From Patescibacteria group bacterium (GTDB lineage Bacteria > Patescibacteriota > Patescibacteriia > JAHJFT01): a stretch of 64,000 bases of DNA. The first letter of the stretch is position 1. Each line of letters starts with the position of its first letter. This document shows, piece by piece, positions 1,051 to 45,689 of this stretch. The notes beneath the pieces are model-generated. The model saw nothing but the letters and a program-made list of their open reading frames with translations, had not been told where the DNA came from and did not search any database. The translations under genes were made by a program, and so were the position numbers. Where the stretch lies: positions 457,864 through 521,863 of the forward strand of contig JAQTTB010000001.1 of the NCBI GenBank assembly GCA_028710985.1, in the 5' to 3' direction.

Positions 1051-1136
1051 GCCGGGATGGTGGAATGGTAGACACACTAGCTTGAGGTGCTAGCGGGGGC
1101 AACCCTGTGGGAGTTCGAATCTCCCTCCCGGCACCA
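1051..1136 (+). tRNA. tRNA-Leu (anticodon GAG), class II with long variable arm, CCA encoded
   Basis: Acceptor GCCGGGA/TCCCGGC; anticodon arm CTAGC-TTGAGGT-GCTAG; T arm GGGAG-TTCGAAT-CTCCC; discriminator A plus CCA. Confidence 0.85.
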
Positions 1137-1143
1137 AACTAAA

Positions 1144-1416
1144 ATGTTTTGTGTTTATGCAATTGATAGTTTGAATAGAAACTATATTTATATTGGCATT
1201 ACAAATAACTTGAGCCGCCGACTCCGACAGCATCAGGGCGGTAAAAATAAAACCACAGCGCCCTATCGTCCATTTAAACTGCTGTACAAAGAAGAGTATA
1301 ATACGAGAGCAGGGGCAAGGCAGCATGAAAAATATTTAAAGTCTGGCTGCGGTAAAGAGTGGATAAAGAGTAATTTTAAAAAACGCGCTAGCCTGCCTGC
1401 CGGCAGGCAGGCTTGA
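1144..1416 (+). CDS. GIY-YIG nuclease family protein (small stand-alone YhbQ/UPF0213-like)
   Basis: MFCVYAIDSLNRNYIYIGITNNLSRRLRQHQGG carries the GIY...YIG and R..H..G motifs; ATG is 8 nt after the tRNA-Leu CCA; 3' end reads through the 20-bp palindrome (LPAGRQA*). Confidence 0.8.
   Translation: MFCVYAIDSLNRNYIYIGITNNLSRRLRQHQGGKNKTTAPYRPFKLLYKEEYNTRAGARQHEKYLKSGCGKEWIKSNFKKRASLPAGRQA
1392..1411. repeat. Perfect 20-bp palindrome CCTGCCTGCCGGCAGGCAGG (family copy 1)
   Basis: Read directly; same element at 14710-14729 and as the C>T variant at 43526-43545 and 51744-51763. Confidence 0.9.
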
Positions 1417-1467
1417 GGTGCTAGTGGGGGCAACCCCGTGGAGGTTCAAGTCCTCTCCGCAGCACCA
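1412..1467 (+). pseudogene. tRNA-Leu-like 3' fragment (anticodon loop to CCA), diverged duplicate of 1081-1136
   Basis: CTTGAGGT-GCTAG-TGGGGGCAACCCCGTG-GAGG-TTCAAGT-CCTC-CCGCAGC-A-CCA; the 3' acceptor strand does not pair with any adjacent 5' half; 5' stem CTAG(C) lies immediately upstream of the palindrome. Confidence 0.5.
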
Positions 1468-1470
1468 GAC

Positions 1471-5990: not shown

Positions 5991-6542
5991 ATGTCAATCA
6001 TCCCATCAACCAGCGAACTTATTAACGCCGCCACTCTTCTTGCCCAGGGTGCGATTCGCCAGGGCATGAAGGTTGCGGATTTAGGTTGCGGCAGCACCGG
6101 CCATTTCGTGTTTGCCGCGTCCGAACTTGTGGGAAAAGACGGAATCGTCTACGCGGTTGATATTCAAAAAGGAGCGCTTGATGGCGTTGAAAGCCGCACG
6201 CGGCTTGAGGGTGCCGAGAATGTCAAAACCGTGTGGTCGGATATTGAAATGTTCGGCGCGACTCGTATCCCGGCGGCGAGTCTTGACCTCGTTCTTCTTG
6301 TCAATAATCTTTTTTTGGCAAAAAACAAAAGCGAACTGGCGCGCGAAATCATCCGCCTGATGGTTCCTGGCGGCCGGCTCATTGTCGCAGACTGGAAGAT
6401 GACGCAGGCGCCGTTTGGCCCGTCCGTGAATGATCGCATTTCGCCCGAAGAAGCAAAGAACGTATTTTCTAAGGCCGGGATGAGGCTGGAAAAAGAATTT
6501 GAAGCCGGCAAATATCATTACGGCTTAGTATTTGTAAAATGA
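5991..6542 (+). CDS. Class I SAM-dependent methyltransferase
   Basis: Motif I VADLGCGSTGHF, motif II IVYAVD, post-I LDLVLLV; start ATG 5991 (upstream part of ORF-track 5778 lacks homology). Confidence 0.7.
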   Translation: MSIIPSTSELINAATLLAQGAIRQGMKVADLGCGSTGHFVFAASELVGKDGIVYAVDIQKGALDGVESRTRLEGAENVKTVWSDIEMFGATRIPAASLDLVLLVNNLFLAKNKSELAREIIRLMVPGGRLIVADWKMTQAPFGPSVNDRISPEEAKNVFSKAGMRLEKEFEAGKYHYGLVFVK

Positions 6543-6608
6543 ATCATGAATCAGGAATCATGAATTAAGAATATCGCGCATCGCACGTCCCTGATTCCCG
6601 ATTCTACG
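6541..6608. repeat. REP-like intergenic repeat GAATCATGAATCAGGAATCATGAAT ... CTGATTCCCGATTC
   Basis: Starts inside the stop codon of the methyltransferase; same family as 1471-1525 and 34182-34253. Confidence 0.5.
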
Positions 6609-6647
6609 CATTGGTAAAAATTTACTATAAAATAAATAACATCCAAT

Positions 6648-14709: not shown

Positions 14710-14729
14710 CCTGCCTGCCGGCAGGCAGG
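14710..14729. repeat. Perfect 20-bp palindrome CCTGCCTGCCGGCAGGCAGG (copy 2), nested in a larger inverted repeat TCTCTCCCTC...GGGAGAGGCAGAGAGGG
   Basis: Read directly. Confidence 0.9.
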
Positions 14730-16140: not shown

Positions 16141-16743
16141 ATGGATAGCCAAACTCGAAAGCTCTCCAGAGGCGAGAAGTGGAGCTTATTTGTATTAAGC
16201 GCCGCGACTTTGTGTATCGTAATTTTGGCTTCATGGCAGATGAAAAATACGATTTTTTCACCGTTTGTCCAGACGCCAAGTGAGGATACGCGCGCTCTGT
16301 TTGATAATTCACTGCAGCTTGAGGAATTGCGCGGCAAGGACAGCGATAGCGATGGCTTAAGCGACTTTGACGAGCTCTATGTCCACAATACGAGTCCGTA
16401 TCTTCCGGATACTGATTCCGACGGTATGAGCGATTCCGCGGAAATCACTGCCGGTAAAGACCCAAACTGTCCCGAGGGCCAGGAATGCTATATTGACCAG
16501 ACCGGCGGCACCTCGACCGCGGCCGGAGAAACCGAAGAAGTGAATTTGACGGAAAGCGAAAAGGCCGATCTTATGCTCCAGCTTCCGGCCGATGAGATCC
16601 GCGAGCTTCTGAAAAATGCCGGCGTGCCCGAGGAAACGCTCAACCAGCTTACTGACGACGAACTCAAACAGATGGTTGCCGATGTTCTTGCCGAAGAGGG
16701 CGGCTCATTGCCGGCGACCGGCTCAACTTCAACCCAAGAGTAA
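16141..16743 (+). CDS. Membrane-anchored protein with thrombospondin-type-3-like Ca-binding repeats (DSDSDGLSDFDE, DTDSDGMSD)
   Basis: N-terminal TM helix and acidic D-x-D-x-D-G repeats. Confidence 0.5.
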   Translation: MDSQTRKLSRGEKWSLFVLSAATLCIVILASWQMKNTIFSPFVQTPSEDTRALFDNSLQLEELRGKDSDSDGLSDFDELYVHNTSPYLPDTDSDGMSDSAEITAGKDPNCPEGQECYIDQTGGTSTAAGETEEVNLTESEKADLMLQLPADEIRELLKNAGVPEETLNQLTDDELKQMVADVLAEEGGSLPATGSTSTQE

Positions 16744-16747
16744 ATTT

Positions 16748-19700
16748 ATGATGCGTTTAAAACAACAAACAATGCGGACAATCGTTGCGCTTGTTTGTTT
16801 TGTTTTTGTTTGCAATCTCCTGCTCGTGCCGATTCATTACGCGCGCGCTCAACTGGTAGTAACGGATCCGGTTACCGGCCAGGCAGTCACCATAAAAAAT
16901 GTAAAAGATTTTATAAAGACCCTGCTTGTCGGCGTGGCCGGCGTTGCCGTAATTAACGCAGCAAATTATTTCGCACAAAAGCTCGCCTACGACGCCGCCG
17001 TAGCTTTGGTTTCCGGCGGTAAGGGCCAGATGCCGCTTTTTTCCACCAAGGGCTGGGGCGATTATTTTAAAGACGCATCGCTCGGCGCGGTCGGCGAATT
17101 TGTGGGCACTTTGTCCGAAGGATTTGAGGGCCTAGATCTCTGTAATCCCGGTCCGCCCGGCCTTGTGGCAAAACTTCAGACCAGTTTGGTCAAACCATAT
17201 ATTCCGGTGGGCGAAGGCCCGGAGCCAAAATGCGAGTGGAGCAATATTTCCGAAAACTGGACCGAGTTTACCGAAGACTTTACCACCGGCGAGGTTCTTC
17301 AGCGCTCGGGCGTGATGTTTGAACCCGGCCAGTCGCCGCTTTCCATTACCCTTGAAGCCAGCCGCAATCTTTCGGTTCAGGTTTATGAAATGGAAAAATT
17401 AAAAACCCTGGAACGCGAGGAGGGGGAAGGATTTTTGGCCAAGACCGGCATTATTTCCGGCGAGGTCCAGACTCCAGCCCAGGTCATCGCCCAAAAAGCC
17501 AAAGACCTTTCAAAGAGCGGCGAAGAATCCCAGCAAACTAATGTCCAGATGATGGGTTCGGCGCTCGGCGCCGGCGCGACGCAGATTCTCACTTCCGCGC
17601 TTGGCACATTCGTGAATACCCTGGCCGGAAAATTATTGGAAAAAATATTTAACAAGGGTTTAATTAGTTTTCAGAAAAAGGGAAAAAATACCGGCGCACT
17701 CATTAATCCTGAATTTTCGCTCGTCGGCACGCGCGAGGTGGCGCAGGAGATGCAGTCCGATCTGATTACCCCGCCGATTAAAGAGGCCGAGGTTTTTGAT
17801 CAGGTGACTGATTTTTCGGTCTGCCCCTCCCAGTTCGCCAGCCCGAATAACTGCGTAATTGACCAGGGATTTTCCGAAGCCCTGCGGCGGGAACAATCCG
17901 GTACCCCGCTCTCGGTCAAAGAGGCGATTAATCAGGGCCTGCTCCGCGGCGACTGGCCGCTTATTTCCTCGTATGACCGCGCCCGCAACACGGATATTTT
18001 TTGCTACACCTACGGATATTGCTATTCAAATTTAGTCAAACTTCGCAAGGCGCGCATCGTCCCGATCGGTTGGGAAATTGCCGCGCAAAAAAGCGGCGCC
18101 TCGGCTTCGCAGATAACCTTGAGCCAGGCCATGGATGCTTTCTATGACTGCGGAACCGATGCCGATGGCCGGCCGGTTGTGGATTCCGAACATCCGTGGT
18201 GCCACCTCGTCGATCCAAACTGGATTATCAAATATCCGCTTACCCAGTGCCGCGCTTCGGTCTACGGTTCAACCCTGCTCACCGCCGAAAACAGCCTGCG
18301 TTCCGAAACCTGCGTTGATTCGCCGACTTGCATTGCGGTTGATGACGGCGGATCCTGTGTCGGGGGTTGGGGATACTGCACCCGCGAAAAAAATACCTGG
18401 CATTTTGACGGCGACCAGTGTCCGGCGCGTTACGAGTCCTGCATCGCGCTTGAAGACCGGAGCGGCAATCAGGTTTCGTATTTATTAAATACCGTAAATT
18501 ACGGCGCCTGCACTTCGGAAAATGTTGGCTGTCGCTGGTACGCGCGCGAAAAGGCCGGCGACAACTGGACCGCGACCGCAAGTTATAATTCCACGGATAA
18601 AACCATGGTCGCGACCGCGGGCGCCATTTATTTAAACAAAAACGCGGCCGAATGTTCGGCTTCGGACGCCGGCTGCACGGAAATGATCCGTGCCACGGCG
18701 ACCGGAGCGACTTTGAATATTCTGCCCAATCCGAGTTTTGAAACCGCGTCCGCCGAAAATCCGGCCATGCCCGAGAACTGGGTTGCCGCCCGCGATAATT
18801 CCAAATACACCAGCGCGGCAACTACCCTGGACGCCACGGGGGACAAATCTTACGACGGGGTCGCGGCGGTTTCGCCCGGCACCGGCTTAGCCGCCGAAGT
18901 CAAACTCAATGCTTCAAGATTTTACACATTCTCTTTTTACGCGCGGACTTCCAGCCGCGCCACGCTTCTCGCCGGTGTTTCAGTCCTGAAGAGCGATCGT
19001 GTCAAAGCCGATCTCACGCCATATTATTTTTCTGGAACCAATTGCACGCGCGGCACCCAATTTGGCGAAGGCGGGGTAAATGAATCAGTTTATTTTAATC
19101 AGATTGCACCGCCCACCGAATACGCGCGCTATTCCTGCACCTTTACCACTCCGGTTGCCGCGGCTTCGCCCAAGGGATATTTTATCGGCCAGATATTTCT
19201 CTATAGCCAGGACGGCACCTGGATTGACGCCGTCCAGCTTGAAGAATCCGAAACCGTAACCGCGTTTCATGAAGGGATTTCCAGCGGAGCCGGGAGTGTT
19301 TATCTTAAAAAACCGCCCGAATATCTGGGATGCACCGGCGCCTCAACCGATCCGGCCGAATGTTCCAATTATCTGCGCCAATGCCTGGCATCGGATGTCG
19401 GCTGTTCAATGTATTATCCAACAAACGGCGATCCGGCGCTTGCCGCGGTCGCGACCGGCGAGAATATTTGTCCGGCCGAATGCGTCGGCTACGACACCTT
19501 CCGCGAAGAGCCGAGTCAGTGGACCGCCGCGGCCAAATTCCCGCTTTACTTAATTCCGGATACCGCCGAGATGTGTGAAGCGAGTGTCGTGGGCTGCGAT
19601 GAATTTACCAACTTAGATGCCGCTGAAGCTGGTGGGGAATCCAAAAATTATTTCACTTCAATCCGCTCCTGCCAGAAGCCGGCCGCGGACAGCGAAACGT

Positions 19701-22700
19701 TTTATACCTGGGAGGGCTCGGACACCGCCGGCTATCAGCTCAAGACGTGGGTGCTCAAGGCGAGCGACAAGGACGCCGGCCCGTGTACCACGCTCGCGCC
19801 GGGCGGGACCTGTAATGATCCAGCCGTCGGCACCGCGGACTATGACGAGCGCGACTGCTCGGAAGATTTTAAAACCGACGCCAACTGCCGCGAATTTTAC
19901 AATACCGCCGGCGGAATTTTTTATCGCAATTATTCAGATACCATTATTTCCACCGATGAATGCTATCGCTACCGCAAAACCGAAGCAACCGGGGAGGCGG
20001 ATTGCGAATCAACCGGCGGCCAGTGGAGCGCGGCCGGAGAATGCATTTATCTGGGCTATCCGTCCGAGAGCCAGCGCTGCGGCGCCGAATCCGCGGGCTG
20101 CCGCGCCTACACCGGCCCGACGAGCCGCAATGTTGAGGAAGAATTTTTTGACGAATTTGAAAATAACACAACCCAGGATTGGCAGGGCGGGGCCGTGAGC
20201 ACCGAATCCGTCACGCTCGGCGGGCATTCGCTCAAAGCCGCGTCCGGGGCCGCGGTTTCCAAAACCTGGGAATTAACCGCGGGCGAAACTTATATTTTGA
20301 GTTTCTGGGCCAAGGGACAAGGCACGGTGGCCGCGCAAATTGACGGCGAGCCGCTCGGCAGCGTCGCCCTCGGTTCGGAATGGGCAAATTATCAGGTCGG
20401 GCCCCTGCTCATGAGTGAGGCGGGGATAGGTTCAGTGGTTAGCTTCAGCGGATTTGCGGTTGATTCGTATCTGGACAACATCCGGCTCACTCGCGTATCG
20501 GATCATCTTTATTTAATTCGCAACTCCTGGTATACGCCGATGGTGTGCGACATGAATAATCAGGGCGTCTACCTGCCGCGCGCCCAACTCGGTTGCCGCG
20601 CCTACACGGACAGCGAAAATCAGGAAAAATATTTTAAATCATTCGATCGCCTTTGCAGCGAAGGGGCGGTGGGCTGCGAAGCTTTTATTGATACTTACAA
20701 TTCCGCGTCAACCGCGAAACAGATATTCAATCAGGGAGAGGACGGCGCCGAAGTCACGGTGCCCGGCGACACGCTTTCATATTATGTATATGACGAGAAC
20801 ATGGCCTGCGGCGCCGACGCCAAAGGTTGCGAAGCGATGGGTCGCCCGATTTTGGATCAGGATGGTCATACCGTGCTCTCGTACGATGATGTATATCTCG
20901 TGAACGATCCGGAAAATTATTCCAACTCGCTCTGCCTCACCGAAGAAGCCTACTGCGACGAATTCAAGGGCGATACCGGAACTTATTATTTCAAACATCC
21001 GGAAGACAAAACCTGCGAATTTAAGGAAAAGGTGAAAATTGCCGGGCTGGAATATTCGGGTTGGTTCCGCACCGGCACCGAAGACCCGTGCTATGGGTCG
21101 TATCTCGGCGCCGGCAACTCGTACGGTATCTGGAAAAACGGCGACTCGGGCTATGACGCCTGGTACGGCAACTGCCCGGCCGACATGAGCACCTGCACCA
21201 AATTTACCGATCCAGCCGACACTTCGGCCGATGAGCCGCAGGGCAAATCATATTATTATTTGGATAACGACACGCTTGATACTAAGAGCTGCGCTGGTTC
21301 GGCCTCCAAAAGCGCGGGCTGCGCCTTATTTAACAGTACTTCAAAGTCAACCAAGACAGAAAATTCCTGGGCGACTTATCTCACGAGCGAGGACAATAAT
21401 TTCGCCGCTGTTGCCACAATCGATTGCCTCAAAAGCGATAGTCCGTATTGTACCAAGGTTTGCTTTGATAAAGAATTCGGCCCGGAAGCGTTTGTTCCGT
21501 ACCGGTTCGGCCATAACTGTCGCGATGCCGGCGACTGTTCGGGCTACAGGGGTTGCGGTGAGATTTCAAGTTTTGGCAGCAAATGGCGGCACTGGATTCC
21601 GGAACAGAATATTTATCAATACACCGGTTCGTGCGAGGCCGGTTCGGTTTGCGCGGCCGGCAATCCGGGCTGTACCGTCGGCGATCTTTGCGTGGATATG
21701 GCCAAAGAGCTCCTGCGCAATGATTCAAATGAATTATTGAAAGTCCGCCGCGACCGCGAATGCGGCGAGTGGCTGGCGTGCCGCAGTTCGGTTTCGGTCT
21801 GGGACAATGAAACGCAAAAATACAAAAAAATCTGCACCAGCCTCGGGCTTTGCGACGAGTTTGCCCCGGTCGGGGATTCCAGCGAGTGCGTTCATTTTAT
21901 TGAGAGCGAACACGCCGAAGACGTGCTTTCCGAAGCGCTTTACACCGCGCGCGATGTTTCCTGGGAAGGCCAGGATTATTCGGGCTACGCCATTCCGAAT
22001 TATTATTCCATTGACGAGCTTTCGCCCATTGATTTGAGCAGTATTGTCGCCGGTTCAAGCCTGCCGGATTTGCGCGTTGCTTATGTTGAAACCGGCTGCG
22101 GCGCCGGCGTGGCTACTGGCCAGACATGCGGAGACGCGAACGCGCTCGGCAACAAGGGTGTCTGCGTTGCCCAAAAATGCGTTTATGCCATCAACGGCGA
22201 AGCCCTGCCCACGGCCGGAACATCGGCGGAATTATATACGTCGCTTACCGCCGGGGAAAACAAATACCGCGTGGTCGGCCAGTCCTGCCGCGCTTATCCG
22301 GAAGAAGGCGCGCCGTTCCCCTCAAGCGTGGCCGAGTGGGAGAACGGAAAAATGACCACCATTGACCCCAACTTCAAACGCGCCAATATCTGCGAGCAGT
22401 CGATCTGGGAAGATCTGAACAGCGACGGCGTGCGCGATGAAAACGAAATCACGTATCAGGACTGCGAATGCGATTATCAAAAAGTTGAATTTGGAAACGG
22501 CGCGGTCACGAAATTTTATTCCACCAATGAAGTTAATATTCCCAAAGGCATCTGCCTCAATGGCCCGCGTTCCGGGCTTTCGTGCGTGCCGGGCGCGGAA
22601 TACGACGACACCCTGCCGGCCGATTCCGCGGATAATCAAAAAACCTGCGGCGCGATTACTTCGGGCGGCGCCTGCCAGGCGGTTGAGCGCGCCGACAAAT

Positions 22701-25582
22701 TCGTGGGCTGGCTCGGCCAGTGCCTGGAGCGCGATTTGCGCACGCCATTGAACGGCAGCACCGAAGATTTTGCCTGCCTGACCTGGTATCCGTCTTACAT
22801 TCTTTCCGGCGGACAGGATGTTTATAATCTTTTCCCCAATGCCGGATATAATCCGACCAACACCGGCCGCTACTGGTGCGCCGAGGCGCGGGGCATCCGC
22901 AATTCCATTGGACCGACTCGGGCTGGCGAAGATTATGAAGTCATAACGCGCGATAATATTGCCAGTACCACAAAGTGGACAAAAGATCCGCCGGGCGTAT
23001 TATTCCCCGGGGTGCTGTGCACTGGCGCTATTAATTGTCCGGATGCAACGGGCCAGGAAAAGTCCGTGTGCCACGACTTTGGTTCTTACAGCGCCTGTGC
23101 CACGGGTAAATTTTATGGCAGCTATACGGCTTCTGAAGATTCGGCCTGGAATCTTTTGGTCTATACGGCCGACACCAAGGATTATTCAGAAAGATTTTTG
23201 CCGGCAACACAATACGAAAATTATTATCTTGACGAAATCGTTGCCATTGAACTCGCGGTTGACGGCGCGCATAATCCCAAGTTGTGGCCGGATGGCCAAA
23301 ACAGTGATACTGAAGATTTTTACGAAGACGGAAACAATATATTAAGCCGCCAGAATGAAGTTGAATTGAAAAACGGATTCAAAGCCTGGGAAACAAGCTG
23401 GGGCATTCCCGAAGAAACAAAAATTCCGTCAAGCGCTCCGCCGATTCTCACGCAGGCCAATTATGCGTTTTCCGGAGAATATAAATATGAGCATGTAACC
23501 GAAGACGCTTCATGCGAAAATGATTACAGCGATTCAAAGAGCTATTTTGCCATTCGCGCCATCTTTGACGCAAACGGCAAATTCCGCGGATTTTGGACCA
23601 CAACCTGCAATGGCACAAGCAAGCCGCGCGCCTGGGTGAAATTTAAAGTCGTTTTTCACCTTGCGGAAAATTGCGAATCTGTCGCCCAGGTGGTAAAGGC
23701 GAGCGGAGAAAACAAGGCCTATACCGACCGGCTTTATCAGGCAACGAATTTTTTAATGATTGTTGGCAGCGAATATAAATATCCGCAGACTTTCGCGCCC
23801 TTTGGTTCGGCGCAAAGTTACGAGTCGCCGCTTGGCCAAAAATTGCCGTGGATTGTCGGCGATAATCGGAAAGACAAAAATTCTGTCGGTACGCCGGACT
23901 TGAGCCTGATTCCGGAAGATTACACTCTCGCCGGTTCATCCCTTGGTTGTAAGGGCGCATGCGCCAAAGAAGAACTCGATGATTTAAATTTTAATACTTT
24001 AACGCGCGCCCTGGGCAATCTTCAGCAGTTATTTACTGCGGTTTATAAAATATTTGAGTGGGAGCCGGGCTATAAACAGGGCAAATGCGAACCGTCCGGC
24101 GGCTGGTCGGAAGGAACGGGTTTCTATATTCCCTGCAATGGCGAGGGCAACACATGTGATAATGATCCGCCCGGTTCGTGCGTGCAGTCTCTTGAATGCG
24201 ATATCGGTCCGCTCGCCGGCGATCGAAATTGCGCAATAAATGATTATTGCCAGGGCGAGTCCGGATATTGCTATCCAAATCCAGACACCACTGTTTACGG
24301 CGATACCGGCGGCGGACGATATGGGGTGATTGAGGAAGGCGAAGGCATTTGCACCGGCAGCTTGCGCGGCAGCGCGCTGTGCGGCGATATTGAATACCCG
24401 GATGAGGGCACGAATAATTTTCCGTCTCCCGAGGGCACCATCAATTTAACCGTTGACGCCGAACGGGCCGGTGATGAATTCTGTCAGACTTCGGGGGTGT
24501 GTATTGATTGGCATATTAGCGATGGTCAGACAATTTATCAGTGCTATGGCGGGCTAAAACATGGCGAGTCATGCAGCGGACAAAGCGATTGCGGCATTAA
24601 TGCCATGAACGGCTTTTGCGACAGCGGTGTTTGCACGGGCGGCGGCTTTGACAGCATATCGGAAAAAGTTTTCTGTTCCGATAACTCGCAGTGCATAATT
24701 TCAAATGCCATGTGCGCGACAAATGTTTATCGCTGCAGCGACGGACTATTGTCTGGCGCCGAATGTGATCCGGGCTCAAGCATTTGCGGCCAGTCATTTT
24801 CTTGTACAGTAGACGCTGTTCCGGCAGAGCGTGACTTTTACGAAAAGAGCGTTCCGGCCTCTGTCTCCGACACGGCCGAAAGCCAGGGCGTTCCGCCGAC
24901 CGTCGCGGCCATTGATTTTACCAAATGCGATCAATCAACCGGCACCTGCCGCATTGCCAAGCTTAACGGTTTTGATGTGAACAACTGGTATTACGGCACC
25001 ATCACCGGCCAGGAACAGCTCAAGGCAACCATCCGCTTTTATGCCTGGGCCGACCATAATCAGATGCCAATTGTTTCGCGCACCGTGGACTGGGGAGACT
25101 CAAGTCCCAAAGACATGACCTCGGCGAGCAAATACAAAAACTATAAGCCTTATTGCGACAGTGATTCCCTGGAATGTTCGGACGCTCCGGGCATGACCTG
25201 CAAGACATCGAGCGACTGCCCGTCCGGCACCGGCACGTGCCAGCCGGATCTAAGCGGCGTGCCGCACTTTGGCAATGATGACAAAGCCTGCAGCGAGGGA
25301 TTTTTCCAGTTTGAACACACTTATCTTTGCGATGGCGGCGACGAGCTTGGTACTTGTCCGTTCAGCGGTTCGCCGGCTTCGTCAGACAGCATTCCGGCCA
25401 ATGGCTGCAAAACCGCGACTGCCTGTTATTACCGCCCGCGCGTCCAGGTTCAGGATAACTGGGGCTGGTGCAACGGCGACTGCAATGGATTGGGTGAGGG
25501 GTGCTATGAGGATGAATGCTTTATTACAAGGGATGATCCACATTGGACCGAGTTTGATGGCTACATCAAAATAAATAAATAA
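16748..25582 (+). CDS. Giant secreted cysteine-rich protein (2,944 aa), signal peptide, CBM-like NPSFE region
   Basis: Uninterrupted 8.8-kb ORF; start at the ATGATG 5 nt after the upstream stop; N-terminal hydrophobic signal (IVALVCFVFVCNLLLVPIHYARA); very high Cys content. Confidence 0.7.
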   Translation: MMRLKQQTMRTIVALVCFVFVCNLLLVPIHYARAQLVVTDPVTGQAVTIKNVKDFIKTLLVGVAGVAVINAANYFAQKLAYDAAVALVSGGKGQMPLFSTKGWGDYFKDASLGAVGEFVGTLSEGFEGLDLCNPGPPGLVAKLQTSLVKPYIPVGEGPEPKCEWSNISENWTEFTEDFTTGEVLQRSGVMFEPGQSPLSITLEASRNLSVQVYEMEKLKTLEREEGEGFLAKTGIISGEVQTPAQVIAQKAKDLSKSGEESQQTNVQMMGSALGAGATQILTSALGTFVNTLAGKLLEKIFNKGLISFQKKGKNTGALINPEFSLVGTREVAQEMQSDLITPPIKEAEVFDQVTDFSVCPSQFASPNNCVIDQGFSEALRREQSGTPLSVKEAINQGLLRGDWPLISSYDRARNTDIFCYTYGYCYSNLVKLRKARIVPIGWEIAAQKSGASASQITLSQAMDAFYDCGTDADGRPVVDSEHPWCHLVDPNWIIKYPLTQCRASVYGSTLLTAENSLRSETCVDSPTCIAVDDGGSCVGGWGYCTREKNTWHFDGDQCPARYESCIALEDRSGNQVSYLLNTVNYGACTSENVGCRWYAREKAGDNWTATASYNSTDKTMVATAGAIYLNKNAAECSASDAGCTEMIRATATGATLNILPNPSFETASAENPAMPENWVAARDNSKYTSAATTLDATGDKSYDGVAAVSPGTGLAAEVKLNASRFYTFSFYARTSSRATLLAGVSVLKSDRVKADLTPYYFSGTNCTRGTQFGEGGVNESVYFNQIAPPTEYARYSCTFTTPVAAASPKGYFIGQIFLYSQDGTWIDAVQLEESETVTAFHEGISSGAGSVYLKKPPEYLGCTGASTDPAECSNYLRQCLASDVGCSMYYPTNGDPALAAVATGENICPAECVGYDTFREEPSQWTAAAKFPLYLIPDTAEMCEASVVGCDEFTNLDAAEAGGESKNYFTSIRSCQKPAADSETFYTWEGSDTAGYQLKTWVLKASDKDAGPCTTLAPGGTCNDPAVGTADYDERDCSEDFKTDANCREFYNTAGGIFYRNYSDTIISTDECYRYRKTEATGEADCESTGGQWSAAGECIYLGYPSESQRCGAESAGCRAYTGPTSRNVEEEFFDEFENNTTQDWQGGAVSTESVTLGGHSLKAASGAAVSKTWELTAGETYILSFWAKGQGTVAAQIDGEPLGSVALGSEWANYQVGPLLMSEAGIGSVVSFSGFAVDSYLDNIRLTRVSDHLYLIRNSWYTPMVCDMNNQGVYLPRAQLGCRAYTDSENQEKYFKSFDRLCSEGAVGCEAFIDTYNSASTAKQIFNQGEDGAEVTVPGDTLSYYVYDENMACGADAKGCEAMGRPILDQDGHTVLSYDDVYLVNDPENYSNSLCLTEEAYCDEFKGDTGTYYFKHPEDKTCEFKEKVKIAGLEYSGWFRTGTEDPCYGSYLGAGNSYGIWKNGDSGYDAWYGNCPADMSTCTKFTDPADTSADEPQGKSYYYLDNDTLDTKSCAGSASKSAGCALFNSTSKSTKTENSWATYLTSEDNNFAAVATIDCLKSDSPYCTKVCFDKEFGPEAFVPYRFGHNCRDAGDCSGYRGCGEISSFGSKWRHWIPEQNIYQYTGSCEAGSVCAAGNPGCTVGDLCVDMAKELLRNDSNELLKVRRDRECGEWLACRSSVSVWDNETQKYKKICTSLGLCDEFAPVGDSSECVHFIESEHAEDVLSEALYTARDVSWEGQDYSGYAIPNYYSIDELSPIDLSSIVAGSSLPDLRVAYVETGCGAGVATGQTCGDANALGNKGVCVAQKCVYAINGEALPTAGTSAELYTSLTAGENKYRVVGQSCRAYPEEGAPFPSSVAEWENGKMTTIDPNFKRANICEQSIWEDLNSDGVRDENEITYQDCECDYQKVEFGNGAVTKFYSTNEVNIPKGICLNGPRSGLSCVPGAEYDDTLPADSADNQKTCGAITSGGACQAVERADKFVGWLGQCLERDLRTPLNGSTEDFACLTWYPSYILSGGQDVYNLFPNAGYNPTNTGRYWCAEARGIRNSIGPTRAGEDYEVITRDNIASTTKWTKDPPGVLFPGVLCTGAINCPDATGQEKSVCHDFGSYSACATGKFYGSYTASEDSAWNLLVYTADTKDYSERFLPATQYENYYLDEIVAIELAVDGAHNPKLWPDGQNSDTEDFYEDGNNILSRQNEVELKNGFKAWETSWGIPEETKIPSSAPPILTQANYAFSGEYKYEHVTEDASCENDYSDSKSYFAIRAIFDANGKFRGFWTTTCNGTSKPRAWVKFKVVFHLAENCESVAQVVKASGENKAYTDRLYQATNFLMIVGSEYKYPQTFAPFGSAQSYESPLGQKLPWIVGDNRKDKNSVGTPDLSLIPEDYTLAGSSLGCKGACAKEELDDLNFNTLTRALGNLQQLFTAVYKIFEWEPGYKQGKCEPSGGWSEGTGFYIPCNGEGNTCDNDPPGSCVQSLECDIGPLAGDRNCAINDYCQGESGYCYPNPDTTVYGDTGGGRYGVIEEGEGICTGSLRGSALCGDIEYPDEGTNNFPSPEGTINLTVDAERAGDEFCQTSGVCIDWHISDGQTIYQCYGGLKHGESCSGQSDCGINAMNGFCDSGVCTGGGFDSISEKVFCSDNSQCIISNAMCATNVYRCSDGLLSGAECDPGSSICGQSFSCTVDAVPAERDFYEKSVPASVSDTAESQGVPPTVAAIDFTKCDQSTGTCRIAKLNGFDVNNWYYGTITGQEQLKATIRFYAWADHNQMPIVSRTVDWGDSSPKDMTSASKYKNYKPYCDSDSLECSDAPGMTCKTSSDCPSGTGTCQPDLSGVPHFGNDDKACSEGFFQFEHTYLCDGGDELGTCPFSGSPASSDSIPANGCKTATACYYRPRVQVQDNWGWCNGDCNGLGEGCYEDECFITRDDPHWTEFDGYIKINK

Positions 25583-33065: not shown

Positions 33066-34197
33066 ATGAAAGAGCTTATCCGCGAACTTGAAGATTTCAC
33101 TGCGCAAATCTCCAAGACATGGGGGTTACTTTGACCTCGACCGCCTGAAATCAGAAATCAAGGCGTTAGAGTCCGAGGCGAGCCAGCCGGATTTTTGGGC
33201 TGATCCGGGGCACGCCAAAGCGGTTTCGCAAAAGCTCAACAGCCTCAAAGAAGAGGTTGAGACTTGGGATAAAATAGAGAAAGAAGCGCGCGAGCTTCTT
33301 TCTCTTTGTAATTTAGCGGAAAGCCAGGGGGATGAAAGTTTGTCCGCTGAAGCGTCGGGAAAATTTGCTGAACTCAAAAAACGCTACGAGCGATTAGAAT
33401 TTTATCTTCTTTTCGGTGGAAAGTACGATCGCGCGAACGCCATTGTGGCCATTCATGCCGGCACTGGCGGCCGCGAGGCTCAGGACTGGGCAGATATGCT
33501 GCTCCGCATGTTTTCGCGTTTCTGTGAGCGTCGCCGCTGGGGAGCGCGCATCCTTGATGAATCGCGCGGCGTTGAGGGTGGTCTCAAGAGCATTACCCTC
33601 GCCGTCGAGGGCGCCTGGGCTTACGGATATTTAAAATCCGAAGCCGGCGTCCATCGTCTGGTGCGCATTTCGCCGTTTGACGCCGAAAAGATGCGCCACA
33701 CTTCGTTCGCTCTGGTTGAAGTTTTGCCCGAGCTTCCGGAAGGTGTGGAGATCGCGATTGATCCGAGCGATTTGCGCATTGATACATTCTGCGCGTCCGG
33801 GCACGGCGGTCAGTCGGTCAATACGACCTACTCTGCCGTGCGCATCACGCATCTGCCGACCAAGATTTCGGTTTCATGTCAGAACGAACGATCCCAGCAG
33901 CAGAATCGCGAAACCGCCATGAAAATTCTCAAAGCAAAGCTCCATCAACTCGAAGAAGAAAAAATGCGCCGCGAGAAAGCCGAAATCCGCGGCGAATACG
34001 CGGCCGCCGAGTGGGGCAATCAGATTCGGAGCTATGTGCTTCAGCCGTACCATCTAGTCAAAGACCACCGCACCAAATATGAGACCGCGGATACCGAAGC
34101 CGTGCTCAACGGAGAATTGGAGCAGTTTATGGAGGCCTATTTGCGACATTTGGCTAGAAAGAGAGATTTACGCGCAAGAGCGAATCAGGAATTATGA
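33066..34197 (+). CDS. prfB: Peptide chain release factor 2 with programmed +1 frameshift (frame-0 ATG 33066, shift at CTT-TGA-C 33129-33135)
   Basis: Frame 0: MKELIRELEDFTAQISKTWGLL*; +1 frame continues DLDRLKSEIKAL...; internal SD-like GGGGG 3 nt upstream of CTTTGAC; SPF/GGQ regions (GHGGQSVNTT) downstream. Confidence 0.9.
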
Positions 34198-34253
34198 ATC
34201 AGGAATCATGAATCTTTTTAATACCCTAATTCCTGATTCCTAATTCTTGATTC
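34182..34253. repeat. REP-like inverted repeat GAATCAGGAATTATGAATCAGGAATCATGAATC ... GATTCCTAATTCTTGATTC
   Basis: Starts within the prfB stop codon; same family as 1471-1525 and 6541-6608. Confidence 0.5.
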
Positions 34254-34308
34254 AACTTAGTGGCAAATACATTTAATTTTTTTAATAAGCATTAATAGAA
34301 ATAATAAT

Positions 34309-41626: not shown

Positions 41627-43579
41627 ATGCCATTCCGACCAAAAGAAGCCGTTGCTCCTGAAGCCAAAACCGGCGCGGTTGCGCCGACCGGCCGCATCGT
41701 GCGGCGCGAGGCCGAGGCGCGCGCCGAGGCCGAGCGAGAACGCATCGTACTTGAAGAAGAGCGCATTTATCGCCGCGGTGTTGTTTCCATCCGCGACCTG
41801 ATCGCGCCGGCCGCTTTTGAAGTAAAACCGAACTATCTCCGGCTCGGCGACAGCTTTTGCCGCACGATTTTTATTGTCACTTATCCGCGCTATGTTTCGG
41901 TTGGATGGGCGACGCCGGTTATCAACTATAATCACACCCTGGATATCGCCATGTTTTTCTATCCAGTCAAGGCGCCGATAATTTTAAAACAGCTCAAGAA
42001 TAAAGTCGGCGTTCTGGAGGCCCAGATCATGGCCGATTCGGAAAAAGGCGCTCCTCGCGATCCGATTCGCGAAACCGCACTCCGCGACATTGAACAGCTT
42101 CGCGACGACCTGACGCAGGGGATTGAGCATTTTTTTCAATTCGCTTTGTACATTACGATTTACGCGAAAGATGTTACGGAACTGGATAAGATATCAACCG
42201 ATATCGAAACCATCTTCGGTTCAAAATTGATTTATTCCAAGCGCGTTCTTTATCAGTCCGAGCAGGGCTTTAATTCCACTGTGCCGCTCGCGAACGACGA
42301 GCTCATGATTACCTTCAATATGAACACCTCGCCGATTGCTTCGTCGTTCCCGTTCACTTCGGCCGAGCTTACTTCGGACAACGGCATACTCTACGGAATA
42401 AACCGCCACAACAACAGCCTGATTCTCTTTGACCGTTTCTCCATGCCGAACGCCAACATGGTTGTTTTTGCCACTTCCGGCGCCGGCAAGAGTTATGCCG
42501 TAAAACTGGAAATCTTGCGCAGCCTGATGCTTGGCACGGATGTTCTCGTCATTGATCCGGAAATGGAATACAAGCACCTTTCCGACGCGGTCGGCGGCAC
42601 CTACATCAATATTTCCCTGGCTTCGGAAAGCAAGATTAATCCGTTCGATCTGCCGCGGCCCATGGGCGAGGATATCAGCACCGAGGATATTATCCGGAGC
42701 GCCGTAATTACTCTCAAGGGTTTGCTCCGCATCATGCTCGGCAAGCTCACTACGGCCGAGGATTCGCTTTTGGATCGCGCGCTTCTTGAAACCTATGCTA
42801 AGCGCGATATTACGCCAAGTTCCGATCTTTCTACCGTCGAGCCGCCGATTATGCAGGATTTGCAGGAAGTGCTCGAGGGCATGGAAGGTACCGGCGATTT
42901 GGTTGTCCGGCTCAAGAAATTCACTGACGGCACATTTGCCGGTCTCTTGAACTCGCCGACCACGGTCACTATGAAAGCCCAGCTCGTGGTCTTCAGCGTG
43001 CGCGATCTTGAGGACGAGCTCCGTCCGATTGCTATCTATACCATCATCAACTACATTTGGAATGTCGTGCGCTCGGAGAGCAAAAAACGCATTCTCACGA
43101 TTGACGAAGCCTGGTGGCTGATGATGCACGAGGACAGCGCAAAATTTATTTTCGCCTTGGTCAAACGCTGCCGGAAATACTATCTCGGCATTACCACCAT
43201 CACGCAGGATGTTAACGATTTTTTGTCCAATCCGTACGGCCGCTCTATTGTCACTAACTCCTCAATGCAGATTCTGATGAAACAGTCGCCGGCCGCGGTT
43301 GATTTGGTGCAAAAAACTTTTCTTCTCACCGAGGGGGAGAAATATCTTCTTCTTGAGTCCGCGGTCGGAGAGGGGATTTTCTTCGCCGGCACAAAGCACG
43401 CGGCGATCAAGGTGGTTGCTTCGTATACCGAGGACCAGCTCATTACCACCGACCCGCGCCAGCTCTTGGAAATAGAAGAATCAAAAAAGCAATTCGCCGA
43501 AGAGGTGCTCGGTCAGTCCGAAGCCCTGCCTGCCGGTAGGCAGGGCGCTTCCGGGGAACCCCCAGCAATAAATATCTAA
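41627..43579 (+). CDS. VirB4/TraC-family type IV secretion ATPase (middle and ATPase domains)
   Basis: IAPAAFEVKPNYLRLGDSFCRTIFIVTYPRYVSVGW; Walker A FATSGAGKS; Walker B ILTIDEAWWLM; C-terminus carries the palindrome insert (EALPAGRQGAS). Confidence 0.8.
   Translation: MPFRPKEAVAPEAKTGAVAPTGRIVRREAEARAEAERERIVLEEERIYRRGVVSIRDLIAPAAFEVKPNYLRLGDSFCRTIFIVTYPRYVSVGWATPVINYNHTLDIAMFFYPVKAPIILKQLKNKVGVLEAQIMADSEKGAPRDPIRETALRDIEQLRDDLTQGIEHFFQFALYITIYAKDVTELDKISTDIETIFGSKLIYSKRVLYQSEQGFNSTVPLANDELMITFNMNTSPIASSFPFTSAELTSDNGILYGINRHNNSLILFDRFSMPNANMVVFATSGAGKSYAVKLEILRSLMLGTDVLVIDPEMEYKHLSDAVGGTYINISLASESKINPFDLPRPMGEDISTEDIIRSAVITLKGLLRIMLGKLTTAEDSLLDRALLETYAKRDITPSSDLSTVEPPIMQDLQEVLEGMEGTGDLVVRLKKFTDGTFAGLLNSPTTVTMKAQLVVFSVRDLEDELRPIAIYTIINYIWNVVRSESKKRILTIDEAWWLMMHEDSAKFIFALVKRCRKYYLGITTITQDVNDFLSNPYGRSIVTNSSMQILMKQSPAAVDLVQKTFLLTEGEKYLLLESAVGEGIFFAGTKHAAIKVVASYTEDQLITTDPRQLLEIEESKKQFAEEVLGQSEALPAGRQGASGEPPAINI
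43526..43545. repeat. Palindrome-family copy 3, CCTGCCTGCCGGTAGGCAGG, in-frame inside the VirB4 CDS
   Basis: Read directly; the same 24-mer is present in the clpC-like gene in the same gene-relative orientation. Confidence 0.9.
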
Positions 43580-44909: not shown

Positions 44910-44999
44910 GGAAGGGTGGCAGAGCGGACGATTGCACCGGTCTTGAAAACCGGAGTCCCTTCACGGGGACCGTGAGTTCGAATCTCACCCCTTCCGCCA
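44910..44999 (+). tRNA. tRNA-Ser (anticodon TGA), class II, CCA encoded
   Basis: Acceptor GGAAGGG/CCCTTCC; anticodon arm CCGGT-CTTGAAA-ACCGG; long variable arm; T arm GTGAG-TTCGAAT-CTCAC. Confidence 0.85.
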
Positions 45000-45014
45000 T
45001 TCTGTAGACTATTC

Positions 45015-45110
45015 GGAGAGGTGGCCGAGAGGCTGAAGGCGGCGGTTTGCTAAACCGTTATACGTGGTTTTTGCCGCGTATCGAGGGTTCGAATCCCTCC
45101 CTCTCCGCCA
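45015..45110 (+). tRNA. tRNA-Ser (anticodon GCT), class II, CCA encoded
   Basis: Acceptor GGAGAGG/CCTCTCC; anticodon loop TTGCTAA; long variable arm; T arm GAGGG-TTCGAAT-CCCTC. Confidence 0.85.
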
Positions 45111-45136
45111 ATTTATAAAATTCAAATCCAGACAAT

Positions 45137-45610
45137 ATGCCGGAAATTACTAAAATCACCCACGAAGTGCCGGAATTTATCAAACACGAAAGATCGCTTC
45201 TTTGGTATATTGTTGCATTTCTGATTGCCGGCGGGCTGGTCACTTATGCTATTCTCAGCGGGAACTTTTTATTCGCCGTTATTGTTGTTCTCATCGGCGT
45301 GATTATTGTCTTGACTTCGTTCCGCGAACCGCGTAAGCTGAGTTTCGAGATCGATCCAATGGGAGTGGCTGTCGGAGGCAAGAGATATAAATTTACGGAT
45401 TTTAAGGATTTTTCCATCATTTACAATCCGCCGGAAACCAATACGCTGTATCTAGAATTTCGCATGCCTCTGCGCGAGCGGCTTTCGGTGCAGCTCGGTG
45501 ATATGGATCCGAACGAAGTGCGGGAATATTTAATGAATTTTTTGAAAGAAGATCTGGAACGTGAGCAGGAATCACTGAGTGATATCTTAAGCCGTTTATT
45601 GAAATTTTAA
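45137..45610 (+). CDS. Hypothetical membrane protein (2 TM) between tRNA genes
   Basis: 157-aa ORF. Confidence 0.4.
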   Translation: MPEITKITHEVPEFIKHERSLLWYIVAFLIAGGLVTYAILSGNFLFAVIVVLIGVIIVLTSFREPRKLSFEIDPMGVAVGGKRYKFTDFKDFSIIYNPPETNTLYLEFRMPLRERLSVQLGDMDPNEVREYLMNFLKEDLEREQESLSDILSRLLKF

Positions 45611-45611
45611 T

Positions 45612-45689
45612 GCGCCCGTAGCTCAGCTTGGATAGAGCGCAACCCTGCGGAGGTTGAGGCCAGACGTTCAAATCGTCTCGGGCGCACCA
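45612..45689 (+). tRNA. tRNA-Arg (anticodon GCG), CCA encoded
   Basis: Acceptor GCGCCCG/CGGGCGC; anticodon arm CAACC-CTGCGGA-GGTTG; T arm AGACG-TTCAAAT-CGTCT. Confidence 0.85.

Follow-up and report, generated by a model that had tools for sequence, protein, structure and literature searches.

The stretch of DNA analyzed here, referred to below as the window, comprises 64,000 nucleotides (nt) of contig JAQTTB010000001.1 of a Patescibacteria group bacterium. Close to its start, an intact tRNA-Leu(GAG) gene is followed on the same strand by a small gene encoding a GIY-YIG nuclease and by a partial tRNA-Leu gene, the remnant, which is interrupted by a 20-bp palindrome, pal. An earlier interpretation based on the letters of the DNA alone (the sequence-only reading) had already recognized the complete tRNA-Leu and the 90-amino-acid (aa) GIY-YIG protein that follows it, and dedicated searches agree on both. 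The features of the locus, with the support for each of them, are as follows.

1051–1136, plus strand: intact tRNA-Leu(GAG), the working replacement copy (ARAGORN; Rfam tRNA model, 56.5 bits).
1137–1143, plus strand: spacer AACTAAA, 7 nt, from the CCA end of the tRNA to the ATG (sequence).
1144–1416, plus strand: GIY-YIG open reading frame (ORF), 90 aa (Pfam PF01541, E=1.1e-16).
1144–1380, plus strand: conserved GIY-YIG core, residues 1–79 (Pfam, alignment invariants, PDB profile matches, AlphaFold2 (AF2) model and Foldseek).
1381–1416, plus strand: read-through tail of the ORF, KRASLPAGRQA and stop (sequence; homologues end near residue 78–84; predicted local distance difference test score (pLDDT) of the tail ~50).
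1383–1391, plus strand: left part of the remnant, ACGCGCTAG, with the 3′ side of the D stem and the 5′ strand of the anticodon stem (alignment to the tRNA of relatives; hot-spot map).
1392–1411, no strand: pal, a perfect palindrome of exactly 20 bp, CCTGCCTGCCGGCAGGCAGG, inserted without target duplication where the anticodon stem of the remnant meets the loop.
1412–1467, plus strand: right part of the remnant, with the anticodon loop, variable arm, T arm, acceptor 3′ strand, and CCA (comparison with L083–L087).
1772, plus strand: ancestral tRNA-Leu site, now empty (the ferredoxin stop, 1769–1771, sits 1 nt from tRNA-Val, 1773–1849).

The intact tRNA-Leu gene (GCCGGGATGGTGGAATGGTAGAC...) has an acceptor stem (GCCGGGA/TCCCGGC), as well as D and T arms, unlike those of the ancestral tRNA-Leu(GAG) of the lineage. 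The gap that separates it from the nuclease gene, originally given as 8 nt, measures 7 nt. This spacer contains no obvious Shine-Dalgarno sequence, and no sigma-70-like site was found between the tRNA-Leu and the ORF; the nuclease gene is probably co-transcribed with the tRNA, and processing of the tRNA 3′ end would then yield an almost leaderless mRNA. At the other end of the gene, the final ten codons (RASLPAGRQA) and the stop fall within the remnant, pal, and the anticodon loop, with the TGA stop (1414–1416) overlapping the GAG anticodon of the remnant.

The remnant spans tRNA positions ~22–87 (1383–1391 and 1412–1467), and its 5′ breakpoint lies at the D-loop/stem junction, a hot spot. Once pal is deleted, the tRNA-Leu sequence runs uninterrupted from position ~22 through CCA (nhmmer E=1.3e-10). 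The direct repeat of the tRNA 3′ half described in the sequence-only reading is real (1080–1139 and 1411–1470, 60 nt, 78% identity, spacing 331 nt), although the duplicated piece is larger than a 3′ half and is split by pal. Its alignment to tRNA-Leu holds as well, since a tRNA-Leu profile built from the 80 loci introduced below matches 1407–1465 with E=1.9e-6.

Two other interpretations of this region were considered and rejected. A full-length second tRNA overlapping the ORF could begin with GCTGCGG at 1346–1352, complementary to the acceptor 3′ strand of the remnant; it was discarded because these nucleotides encode Cys-Gly in the conserved SGCGKEW motif, the corresponding sequence of L083 is GGCTGTGG, and the profile shows no D arm. 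A tRNA intron or group I intron was discarded as well, as an Rfam scan of 900–2000 (E≤10) revealed no intron or ribozyme family, and the insert of ~330 nt is coding.

The window was compared with eight related contigs, in which the common order is bactofilin, kinase (diacylglycerol-kinase-like), ferredoxin, tRNA-Leu, and tRNA-Val. In the relatives, an 87-nt tRNA-Leu gene is found at the exact position matching 1772 of the window; in the window, the block made up of the new tRNA-Leu, the nuclease gene, and the remnant is placed between the kinase and ferredoxin genes. With pal taken out, the remnant shares 97–98% identity with the intact tRNA-Leu(GAG) genes found in related Patescibacteria (L083–L087), and its acceptor 3′ strand, CCGCAGC, and T arm are the same as theirs. 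This degree of identity identifies the remnant as the original gene of the lineage, in line with its earlier description as a displaced fragment. The intact tRNA-Leu of the window, in turn, resembles the gene of the relatives only at positions 16–60 (89–91%), and its acceptor, D, and T arms differ from those of the relatives but are internally compensated. The differences between the two copies are compensatory in the T and acceptor stems, which shows that the second copy derives from another functional tRNA-Leu and did not arise by decay of a duplicate of the first. As judged from these sequence comparisons, the copy at 1051–1136 is a replacement, either xenologous or mosaic.

The nuclease gene is present in some close relatives and absent from others at one conserved site. 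The closest relative (L249), as well as L086, have ferredoxin, tRNA-Leu(GAG), and tRNA-Val with no nuclease gene, which is also absent from L082, where a tRNA-Leu(CAG) is present. In L083–85, L087–88, and L089, a 5′ fragment of tRNA-Leu bearing pal is followed by a GIY-YIG gene and then by an intact tRNA-Leu at the same site. Pal is found at the orthologous site in all occupied relatives and in no empty one. That close relatives share the tRNA-Leu with or without a nuclease gene supports the sequence-only reading in seeing the arrangement as the footprint of a mobile insertion. The synteny comparison proposed there is borne out as to the existence of empty sites, with the order ferredoxin, tRNA-Leu, and tRNA-Val, but not as to the block of the window itself, which lies elsewhere.

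An empty (L082) and an occupied (L083) contig are ~100% identical over ~1 kb of flank and tRNA-Val. L083 differs by an insertion of 322 nt, as well as at ~10 of the 87 positions of tRNA-Leu and in 7 nt upstream of it. The segment duplicated in L083 is 40 nt long and consists of 7 nt of upstream flank and of tRNA positions 1–33. The anticodon at this site is CAG in L082 (3962–4048) and GAG in L083 (4284–4370), which hints that such events can change the anticodon repertoire. The differences within this pair may reflect co-conversion of flanking markers, although the CAG tRNA of L082, with its mismatched acceptor stem (GCTGCGG/CCTCGGC), itself looks recombinant. Host-type duplicates were seen in L089 and L086. 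The nucleases of the relatives are 83–88% identical among themselves and 65–68% identical to that of the window, which resembles homologues of other phyla at least as closely. The window therefore holds a separate cassette lineage.

Scanning one genome per species revealed at least 570 loci that encode relatives of the nuclease, and the counts of linkage given here refer to the best 80 of them; the family comprises 351 clusters at 50% identity (E≤1e-10). A same-strand tRNA-Leu directly adjoins the nuclease gene in 76 of the 80 loci, in agreement with the earlier remark that small GIY-YIG genes are often tRNA-adjacent. These loci belong to Patescibacteria, Bacteroidota, Ignavibacteriota, Balneolales, and Omnitrophota. 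All five anticodons are represented at the linked tRNA-Leu (caa 36, gag 17, cag 12, taa 6, tag 5). In loci of type D, the tRNA-Leu starts 5–30 nt after the stop of the nuclease gene, and in those of type U, to which the window belongs, it lies ~20–100 nt before the start; type D accounts for 25 of 26 loci in Patescibacteria, and the two types are mixed in Bacteroidota.

On the opposite side of the nuclease gene, a partial tRNA-Leu is the usual finding. It is a 5′ piece in type D, ending in the anticodon loop in 25 of 45 loci, and a 3′ piece or a whole second copy in type U, often with the host's own terminator repeated. At many loci of type D, this piece matches the neighboring intact tRNA-Leu in its locus-specific sequence, which indicates a duplicated target and not imported DNA. 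The two tRNA-Leu copies differ in a minority of loci, the window included. Tandem cassettes, identical or degenerate, are found in L008, L071, L073, L066, and L089, truncated copies are also seen, and a single metagenome-assembled genome (MAG) carries cassettes at two isoacceptor genes (L011, L014). In distant clades (40–57% identity), the same architecture is present at tRNA-Lys, Asn, Arg, and Ser. Many database proteins of the family have N-terminal extensions of 20–55 aa, such as AKLADLPAGRQAR, that are translations of a tRNA fragment and pal; no exact protein record of the window nuclease was found among database proteins.

The sequence-only reading had regarded the same arrangement in distant relatives as a sign of ancient vertical descent. 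The arrangement is indeed present in distant relatives, yet ancient vertical inheritance is not favored, because the five anticodons, both orientations, tandem arrays, and presence/absence polymorphism argue for recurrent targeted mobility.

Several observations on the surroundings of tRNA genes may be added. Among metagenome and viral sequences, GIY-YIG genes of more distant clades were seen at tRNA-Lys, Asn, Arg(TCG), Ser(GGA), and Arg(ACG) (L163, L134, L184, L140, L247, L242), where the layout is a 5′ tRNA fragment with the same palindrome in the D loop, the nuclease gene, and an intact tRNA. Within the window, the cluster of tRNA-Ser(TGA), tRNA-Ser(GCT), and tRNA-Arg(GCG) at 44910–45689 has no GIY-YIG gene or tRNA fragment nearby, so the tRNA genes of this genome are not generally occupied. 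On the 3′ side of tRNA-Val, at 1938–1982, a GGCAGG...CCCGCCAGAGGCGGG...CAGGCT hairpin comes after GCCGGGATG, which equals the initial 9 nt of the intact tRNA-Leu; this segment gives no significant match to the tRNA-Leu profile and could represent a degenerate 5′ fragment with a pal-like hairpin or have arisen by chance.

Most redundant tRNA pieces in the 80 loci contain pal or a close variant of it, sometimes in two or three copies and sometimes nested in its own center. The insertions are exactly 20 nt long, and in 95 cases removal of pal restores a continuous tRNA-Leu. They are found at discrete positions of the cloverleaf, comprising the D loop (~19 cases), the 3′ junction of the D loop and stem (~33), the 5′ anticodon junction (5, the window among them), the 3′ anticodon junction (3), the T stem/loop junction (~13), and the 3′ side of the T loop (6). 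Patescibacteria MAGs and the genome of a Mucilaginibacter isolate contain the identical 20-mer, and a Melioribacter isolate has a copy bearing one mismatch. The window contains three further, dispersed copies, all far from any GIY-YIG gene.

14710–14729, no strand: exact pal, intergenic, within a local inverted repeat.
43525–43544, no strand: pal with 1 mismatch, at the 3′ end of the ORF 41627–43579.
51744–51763, no strand: pal with 1 mismatch, in the 3′ part of the minus-strand ORF 51595–54162.

In the latter two, a 20-nt insertion would shift the C-terminal reading frame (tails of the ...LPAGRQG type). Beyond the window, pal is found in at least 120 metagenome stretches and in 35 stretches of viral contigs, and its metagenome copies often sit in low-complexity tracts with ~7-nt periodicity. 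The suggestion that dispersed pal always occupies hairpin tips was rejected, as the enrichment there is weak (9.8% vs 5.5%, stem ≥5 bp). Covariation among pal variants, sought for the register of a functional hairpin, gave no clear signal.

The protein encoded by the window scores 61.4 bits against Pfam PF01541 (cutoff 22.6). In an alignment of 28 sequences, Arg26 and Glu62 are invariant, and Tyr5, Tyr16, and His30 are present in at least 90%. The AF2 model (pLDDT 90.2) consists of strands 2–9 and 15–20, helix 23–32, strand 44–52, and helices 55–66 and 68–78, and thus has the β-β-α-β-α fold of GIY-YIG domains, followed by a disordered C-terminal tail. The profile search of the PDB placed first the UPF0213 structures 1zg2 (7.6e-7) and 1ywl (1e-6), then SLX1 (3e-5), at 27–31% identity, and the best Foldseek match is 7cq2 (Slx1, 8e-4), followed by UPF0213, with I-TevI (0.17) and UvrC domains ranking behind. 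These matches of sequence and model describe the protein as a minimal stand-alone GIY-YIG nuclease of Slx1/UPF0213 type, with a core of 79 aa and no extra domains, whose clade has a signature of its own, TTxPYRPF...EKYLKSGxGKEWIK.

Taken together, these features are best explained by the locus being a live copy and a scar of a free-standing, homing-endonuclease-like cassette, belonging to a clade specialized on tRNA-Leu genes, a reading to which we assign a probability of roughly 60%. The cassette is essentially a single gene of ~240 nt for the minimal nuclease described above. The nuclease would break the DNA of a tRNA-Leu gene at loop or loop/stem-junction positions in the D, anticodon, or T loop, and recombinational repair from an occupied allele would copy the nuclease gene into or beside the tRNA gene. 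Only products keeping one intact tRNA-Leu would survive, so that the cassette would come to be flanked by one complete copy and by a redundant partial or whole one. The redundant copy would subsequently acquire pal, which might be a cognate DNA element of the nuclease or might break the homology of the repeats and so stabilize the cassette. The anatomy of the locus, the linkage to tRNA-Leu throughout the family, the variable presence of the gene, the origin of the remnant, and the fold and catalytic residues of the protein are established. Breakpoints and pal insertions do cluster at discrete positions of the tRNA; the cleavage itself, the exact cut positions, and the manner of pal insertion belong to the proposed mechanism. 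In the window, truncation at the D-arm junction would have removed the initial ~21 nt of the old tRNA-Leu(GAG), which would also have gained pal at the anticodon junction. The divergent tRNA-Leu(GAG) that precedes the nuclease gene would now provide the function, and the entire block would have shifted to the other side of the ferredoxin gene.

Several observations weigh against this interpretation. The permuted gene order of the window requires several extra steps, and no one-step derivation accounts for it. An intact, presumably cleavable tRNA-Leu adjoins every cassette, with no obvious self-immunity. SegB and I-TevI owe their specificity to a DNA-binding domain, and the protein described here, a bare catalytic core, has none; DNA cleavage by a 79-aa domain, as well as its position, is something that we infer. 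A GIY gene is present in only 11 of the 155 pal loci from metagenome and viral sequences, with none in the locus in the other 144, and pal may have been moved by something else. Homologues number zero in INPHARED (50,697 records of cultured phages) and in PLSDB, and three in IMG/VR (2.9 million viral contigs), figures on which carriage by phages or plasmids was also rejected. Finally, many of the loci come from MAGs, and some of the taxonomic labels may be wrong.

Nuclease, tRNA-Leu, and palindrome recur together across several phyla, which suggests a selfish element resident in bacterial chromosomes, apparently one not described before. We can speculate further, and quite tentatively, that the nuclease and pal represent an unrecognized class of prokaryotic mobile elements, in which a structure-reading nuclease would break hairpin or cloverleaf DNA and plant its own gene, or pal, at loop junctions. 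The preference for an isotype would depend on the clade (Leu, Lys, Asn, Arg, or Ser), and tRNA genes would be duplicated, replaced, given new anticodons, and moved within and between phyla.

The main rival to the homing-like cassette is an arrangement resembling that of REP (repetitive extragenic palindromic) sequences and RAYTs (REP-associated tyrosine transposases), which we consider rather unlikely. Here pal would be the mobile, miniature, non-autonomous unit, the GIY-YIG protein a single-copy nuclease acting in trans, and the tRNA duplications mere by-products; the location of the gene at tRNA-Leu would follow from the tolerance of that site for pal-type insertions and for the repair duplications that go with them. 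The behavior of pal fits this view in many respects, as it is identical across phyla, accompanies the nuclease family at most loci examined and in every phylum sampled, is dispersed (four copies in the 64-kb window), inserts exactly and without target duplication, at times into its own center, and at the orthologous site marks occupied relatives and not empty ones. In L055, moreover, tandem mini-duplications of the tRNA 3′ end have one pal each and no GIY gene between them, and other stand-alone GIY-YIG genes (L081, L180) are likewise flanked by hairpin repeats. However, strand-transfer chemistry is not known for GIY-YIG enzymes, which are hydrolytic nucleases, and the protein is of that kind and not an HUH/Y1 transposase-like one. 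The faint preference of dispersed pal for hairpin tips and the lack of clear covariation among its variants also fit poorly, and the clade-specific choice of tRNA isotype is not explained by this arrangement in itself.

A second alternative, less probable still, is that the gene benefits its host, either as an enzyme of tRNA or RNA processing or as a SegB-like driver of tRNA gene amplification and replacement against tRNA-targeting defenses or toxins, with the fragments being incidental. The catalytic residues are conserved over a large family, co-transcription with the tRNA is probable given the spacing of 5–30 nt, prokaryotic Slx1-like domains are in some genomes fused to the tRNA methyltransferase TrmH or to a COG4123 methyltransferase (PMC1564403), and amplification driven by SegB benefits its phage (PMC13096335). 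Against it stand the variable presence of the gene among near-identical strains, the truncated and tandem degenerate copies, a patchy distribution across phyla with no conserved partner gene, and a PADLOC search that returned no match above noise, on which membership in a defense system was also rejected.

Classical site-specific integration, of the kind that the sequence-only reading had in view, would have an integrase-borne element enter the 3′ part of a tRNA gene, regenerate it, and decay to ~330 nt. An intact tRNA accompanied by the displaced 3′ piece of the old one is what attL/attR sites usually look like (PMC9897764), and identical blocks of 14 and 11 nt are common to both copies. This mechanism is nevertheless already contradicted, and we hold it very improbable. 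No integrase or recombinase domain was found in the first 6.5 kb of the window (the 80 related loci were not systematically searched for integrases). The duplicated piece may be the 5′ part, the 3′ part, or the whole tRNA, with junctions that vary; the same minimal content, one GIY ORF, recurs everywhere; and in place of an identical att core there are repeats of 78% identity with variable ends. In the window, the intact copy is non-ancestral in its 5′ arms as well as in its 3′ arms, the fragment has a palindrome inside it, and the block lies off the ancestral site. The least credible explanation, a chance juxtaposition or plain local duplication unrelated to the nuclease gene, appeals to the fact that tRNA genes duplicate and decay by themselves and is already contradicted by the comparative data, namely the linkage in 76 of 80 loci, the conserved palindrome, and a fragment orthologous to the intact gene of the relatives.

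Some features of the window and of related assemblies lie outside this argument. A dispersed family of intergenic repeats, found at 1473–1525, 6540–6610, and 34180–34255, is built of inverted repeats of ~7-nt periodic units (GAATCAG/GAATTAG ... GATTCCT/AATTCCT). Tracts of similar heptad periodicity adjoin many of the pal copies on metagenome contigs. The likeness of the spacer 1468–1579 to the ferredoxin–tRNA spacer of L089 was rejected as a marker of rearrangement and is not evidence of synteny, because this heptad-periodic family is also present at 6540–6610 and 34180–34255. A single ORF of 2988 aa extends over 16616–25582 on the plus strand. In an independent short-read assembly of the same genome (L081), the contig end, 4161, falls inside the tRNA-Leu remnant; the repeat disrupts the assembly, and such loci are therefore probably under-represented in MAGs. 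The same assembly includes, just upstream of the start of the window (L081 320–810), a second, different GIY-YIG gene of 95 aa, which is YhbQ/UPF0213-like, is flanked by a 207-aa ORF and by arginyl-tRNA synthetase (ArgRS), and has a long imperfect palindrome, CCGAGCGAAG...CTTCGCTCGG, ahead of it. This gene probably represents a further insertion, as in the relative L086 tyrosyl-tRNA synthetase (TyrRS) and ArgRS are adjacent without such a gene.

If the reading as a homing-like cassette is true, it would offer a testable role for the large family of bacterial stand-alone Slx1/UPF0213-like proteins to which no function has been assigned, and a third source of prokaryotic partial tRNA genes beside integrases and CRISPR. 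Partial tRNA genes confuse tRNA annotation, and gene callers make spurious protein extensions of the AKLADLPAGRQAR type from them. The cassette would also be a possible route by which streamlined genomes, such as those of Patescibacteria, duplicate, replace, and move tRNA genes, and a nuclease of only ~79 aa, given a defined DNA target, would make an attractive tool. The analysis also brings to light a 20-bp palindrome conserved across phyla. Full-text searches of the literature, with most subscription journals outside their coverage, returned no account of the palindrome or of a bacterial linkage between GIY-YIG genes and tRNA-Leu, and nothing on this arrangement with truncated tRNAs or in Patescibacteria.

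Among known systems, short GC-rich palindromes flank tRNA genes in Neurospora mitochondria, and mobile GC clusters occur in those of yeast, with GIY-YIG ORFs in the same genomes. These elements and pal are alike in being short, conserved, GC-rich, and associated with tRNA, and differ in sequence; we know of no demonstrated link between the organellar palindromes and a specific nuclease gene or tRNA duplication. The likeness to REP/RAYT systems (REPtrons) lies in the pairing of a single-copy nuclease gene, flanked by its short palindromic repeat, with numerous copies of that repeat dispersed elsewhere. RAYTs belong to the HUH enzymes, whose strand-transfer chemistry is known, and to our knowledge they have no link to tRNA.

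Integrase islands in tRNA genes share with the present locus one intact and one partial tRNA copy bracketing the inserted DNA (PMC9897764). They differ from it in that here no integrase was found in the 6.5 kb inspected, the insert is ~0.25 kb, 5′ or whole duplicates occur, the junctions are variable, and a palindrome lies in the partial copy. The same source lists only integrases and CRISPR as origins of prokaryotic tRNA gene fragments (PMC9897764).

The Slx1/UPF0213 proteins (YhbQ/YazA-like) provide the best matches in sequence and fold (1zg2, 1ywl, 7cq2) and are similarly minimal, with no auxiliary DNA-binding modules. Kinship with structure-specific nucleases of this type would fit breaks at the junctions of hairpins and cloverleaves. 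The window protein is nevertheless set apart from them by profile E-values of only 1e-6 to 1e-7, by the low identity noted above, and by its own clade signature. A survey of the superfamily gives no function, mobile behavior, or tRNA-gene linkage for bacterial stand-alone Slx1-like proteins (PMC1564403).

The closest documented system is SegB of phages T4 and T6, a GIY-YIG homing endonuclease located among tRNA genes, which recognizes a T-psi-C stem-loop motif and co-converts the flanking tRNA genes (PMC2330249), with recombination-dependent tandem amplification of tRNA+segB units (PMC13096335). In both systems, a nuclease gene is embedded among tRNA genes, and tandem repeats of tRNA and nuclease, truncated copies included, are formed; in that of SegB, the repeats are made by break-induced homologous recombination, and linkage to tRNA is frequent in many phages. 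SegB is a longer phage protein, of which a C-terminally truncated variant was tested in the same study, whereas the core here is ~79 aa, belongs to the Slx1/UPF0213 branch, and matches I-TevI-type structures weakly; its score with the model TIGR01453 is 16.5 bits against a cutoff of 56, and it has no C-terminal domain. The genes described here are chromosomal (Patescibacteria, Bacteroidota, and others), absent from the cultured-phage collection, and tied to leucine tRNAs, unlike SegB homologues, which show no isotype preference. A 20-bp palindrome accompanies most of the loci and is not mentioned for SegB (PMC2330249, PMC13096335). In its proposed manner of working the element is like SegB, without being a member of the SegB family.

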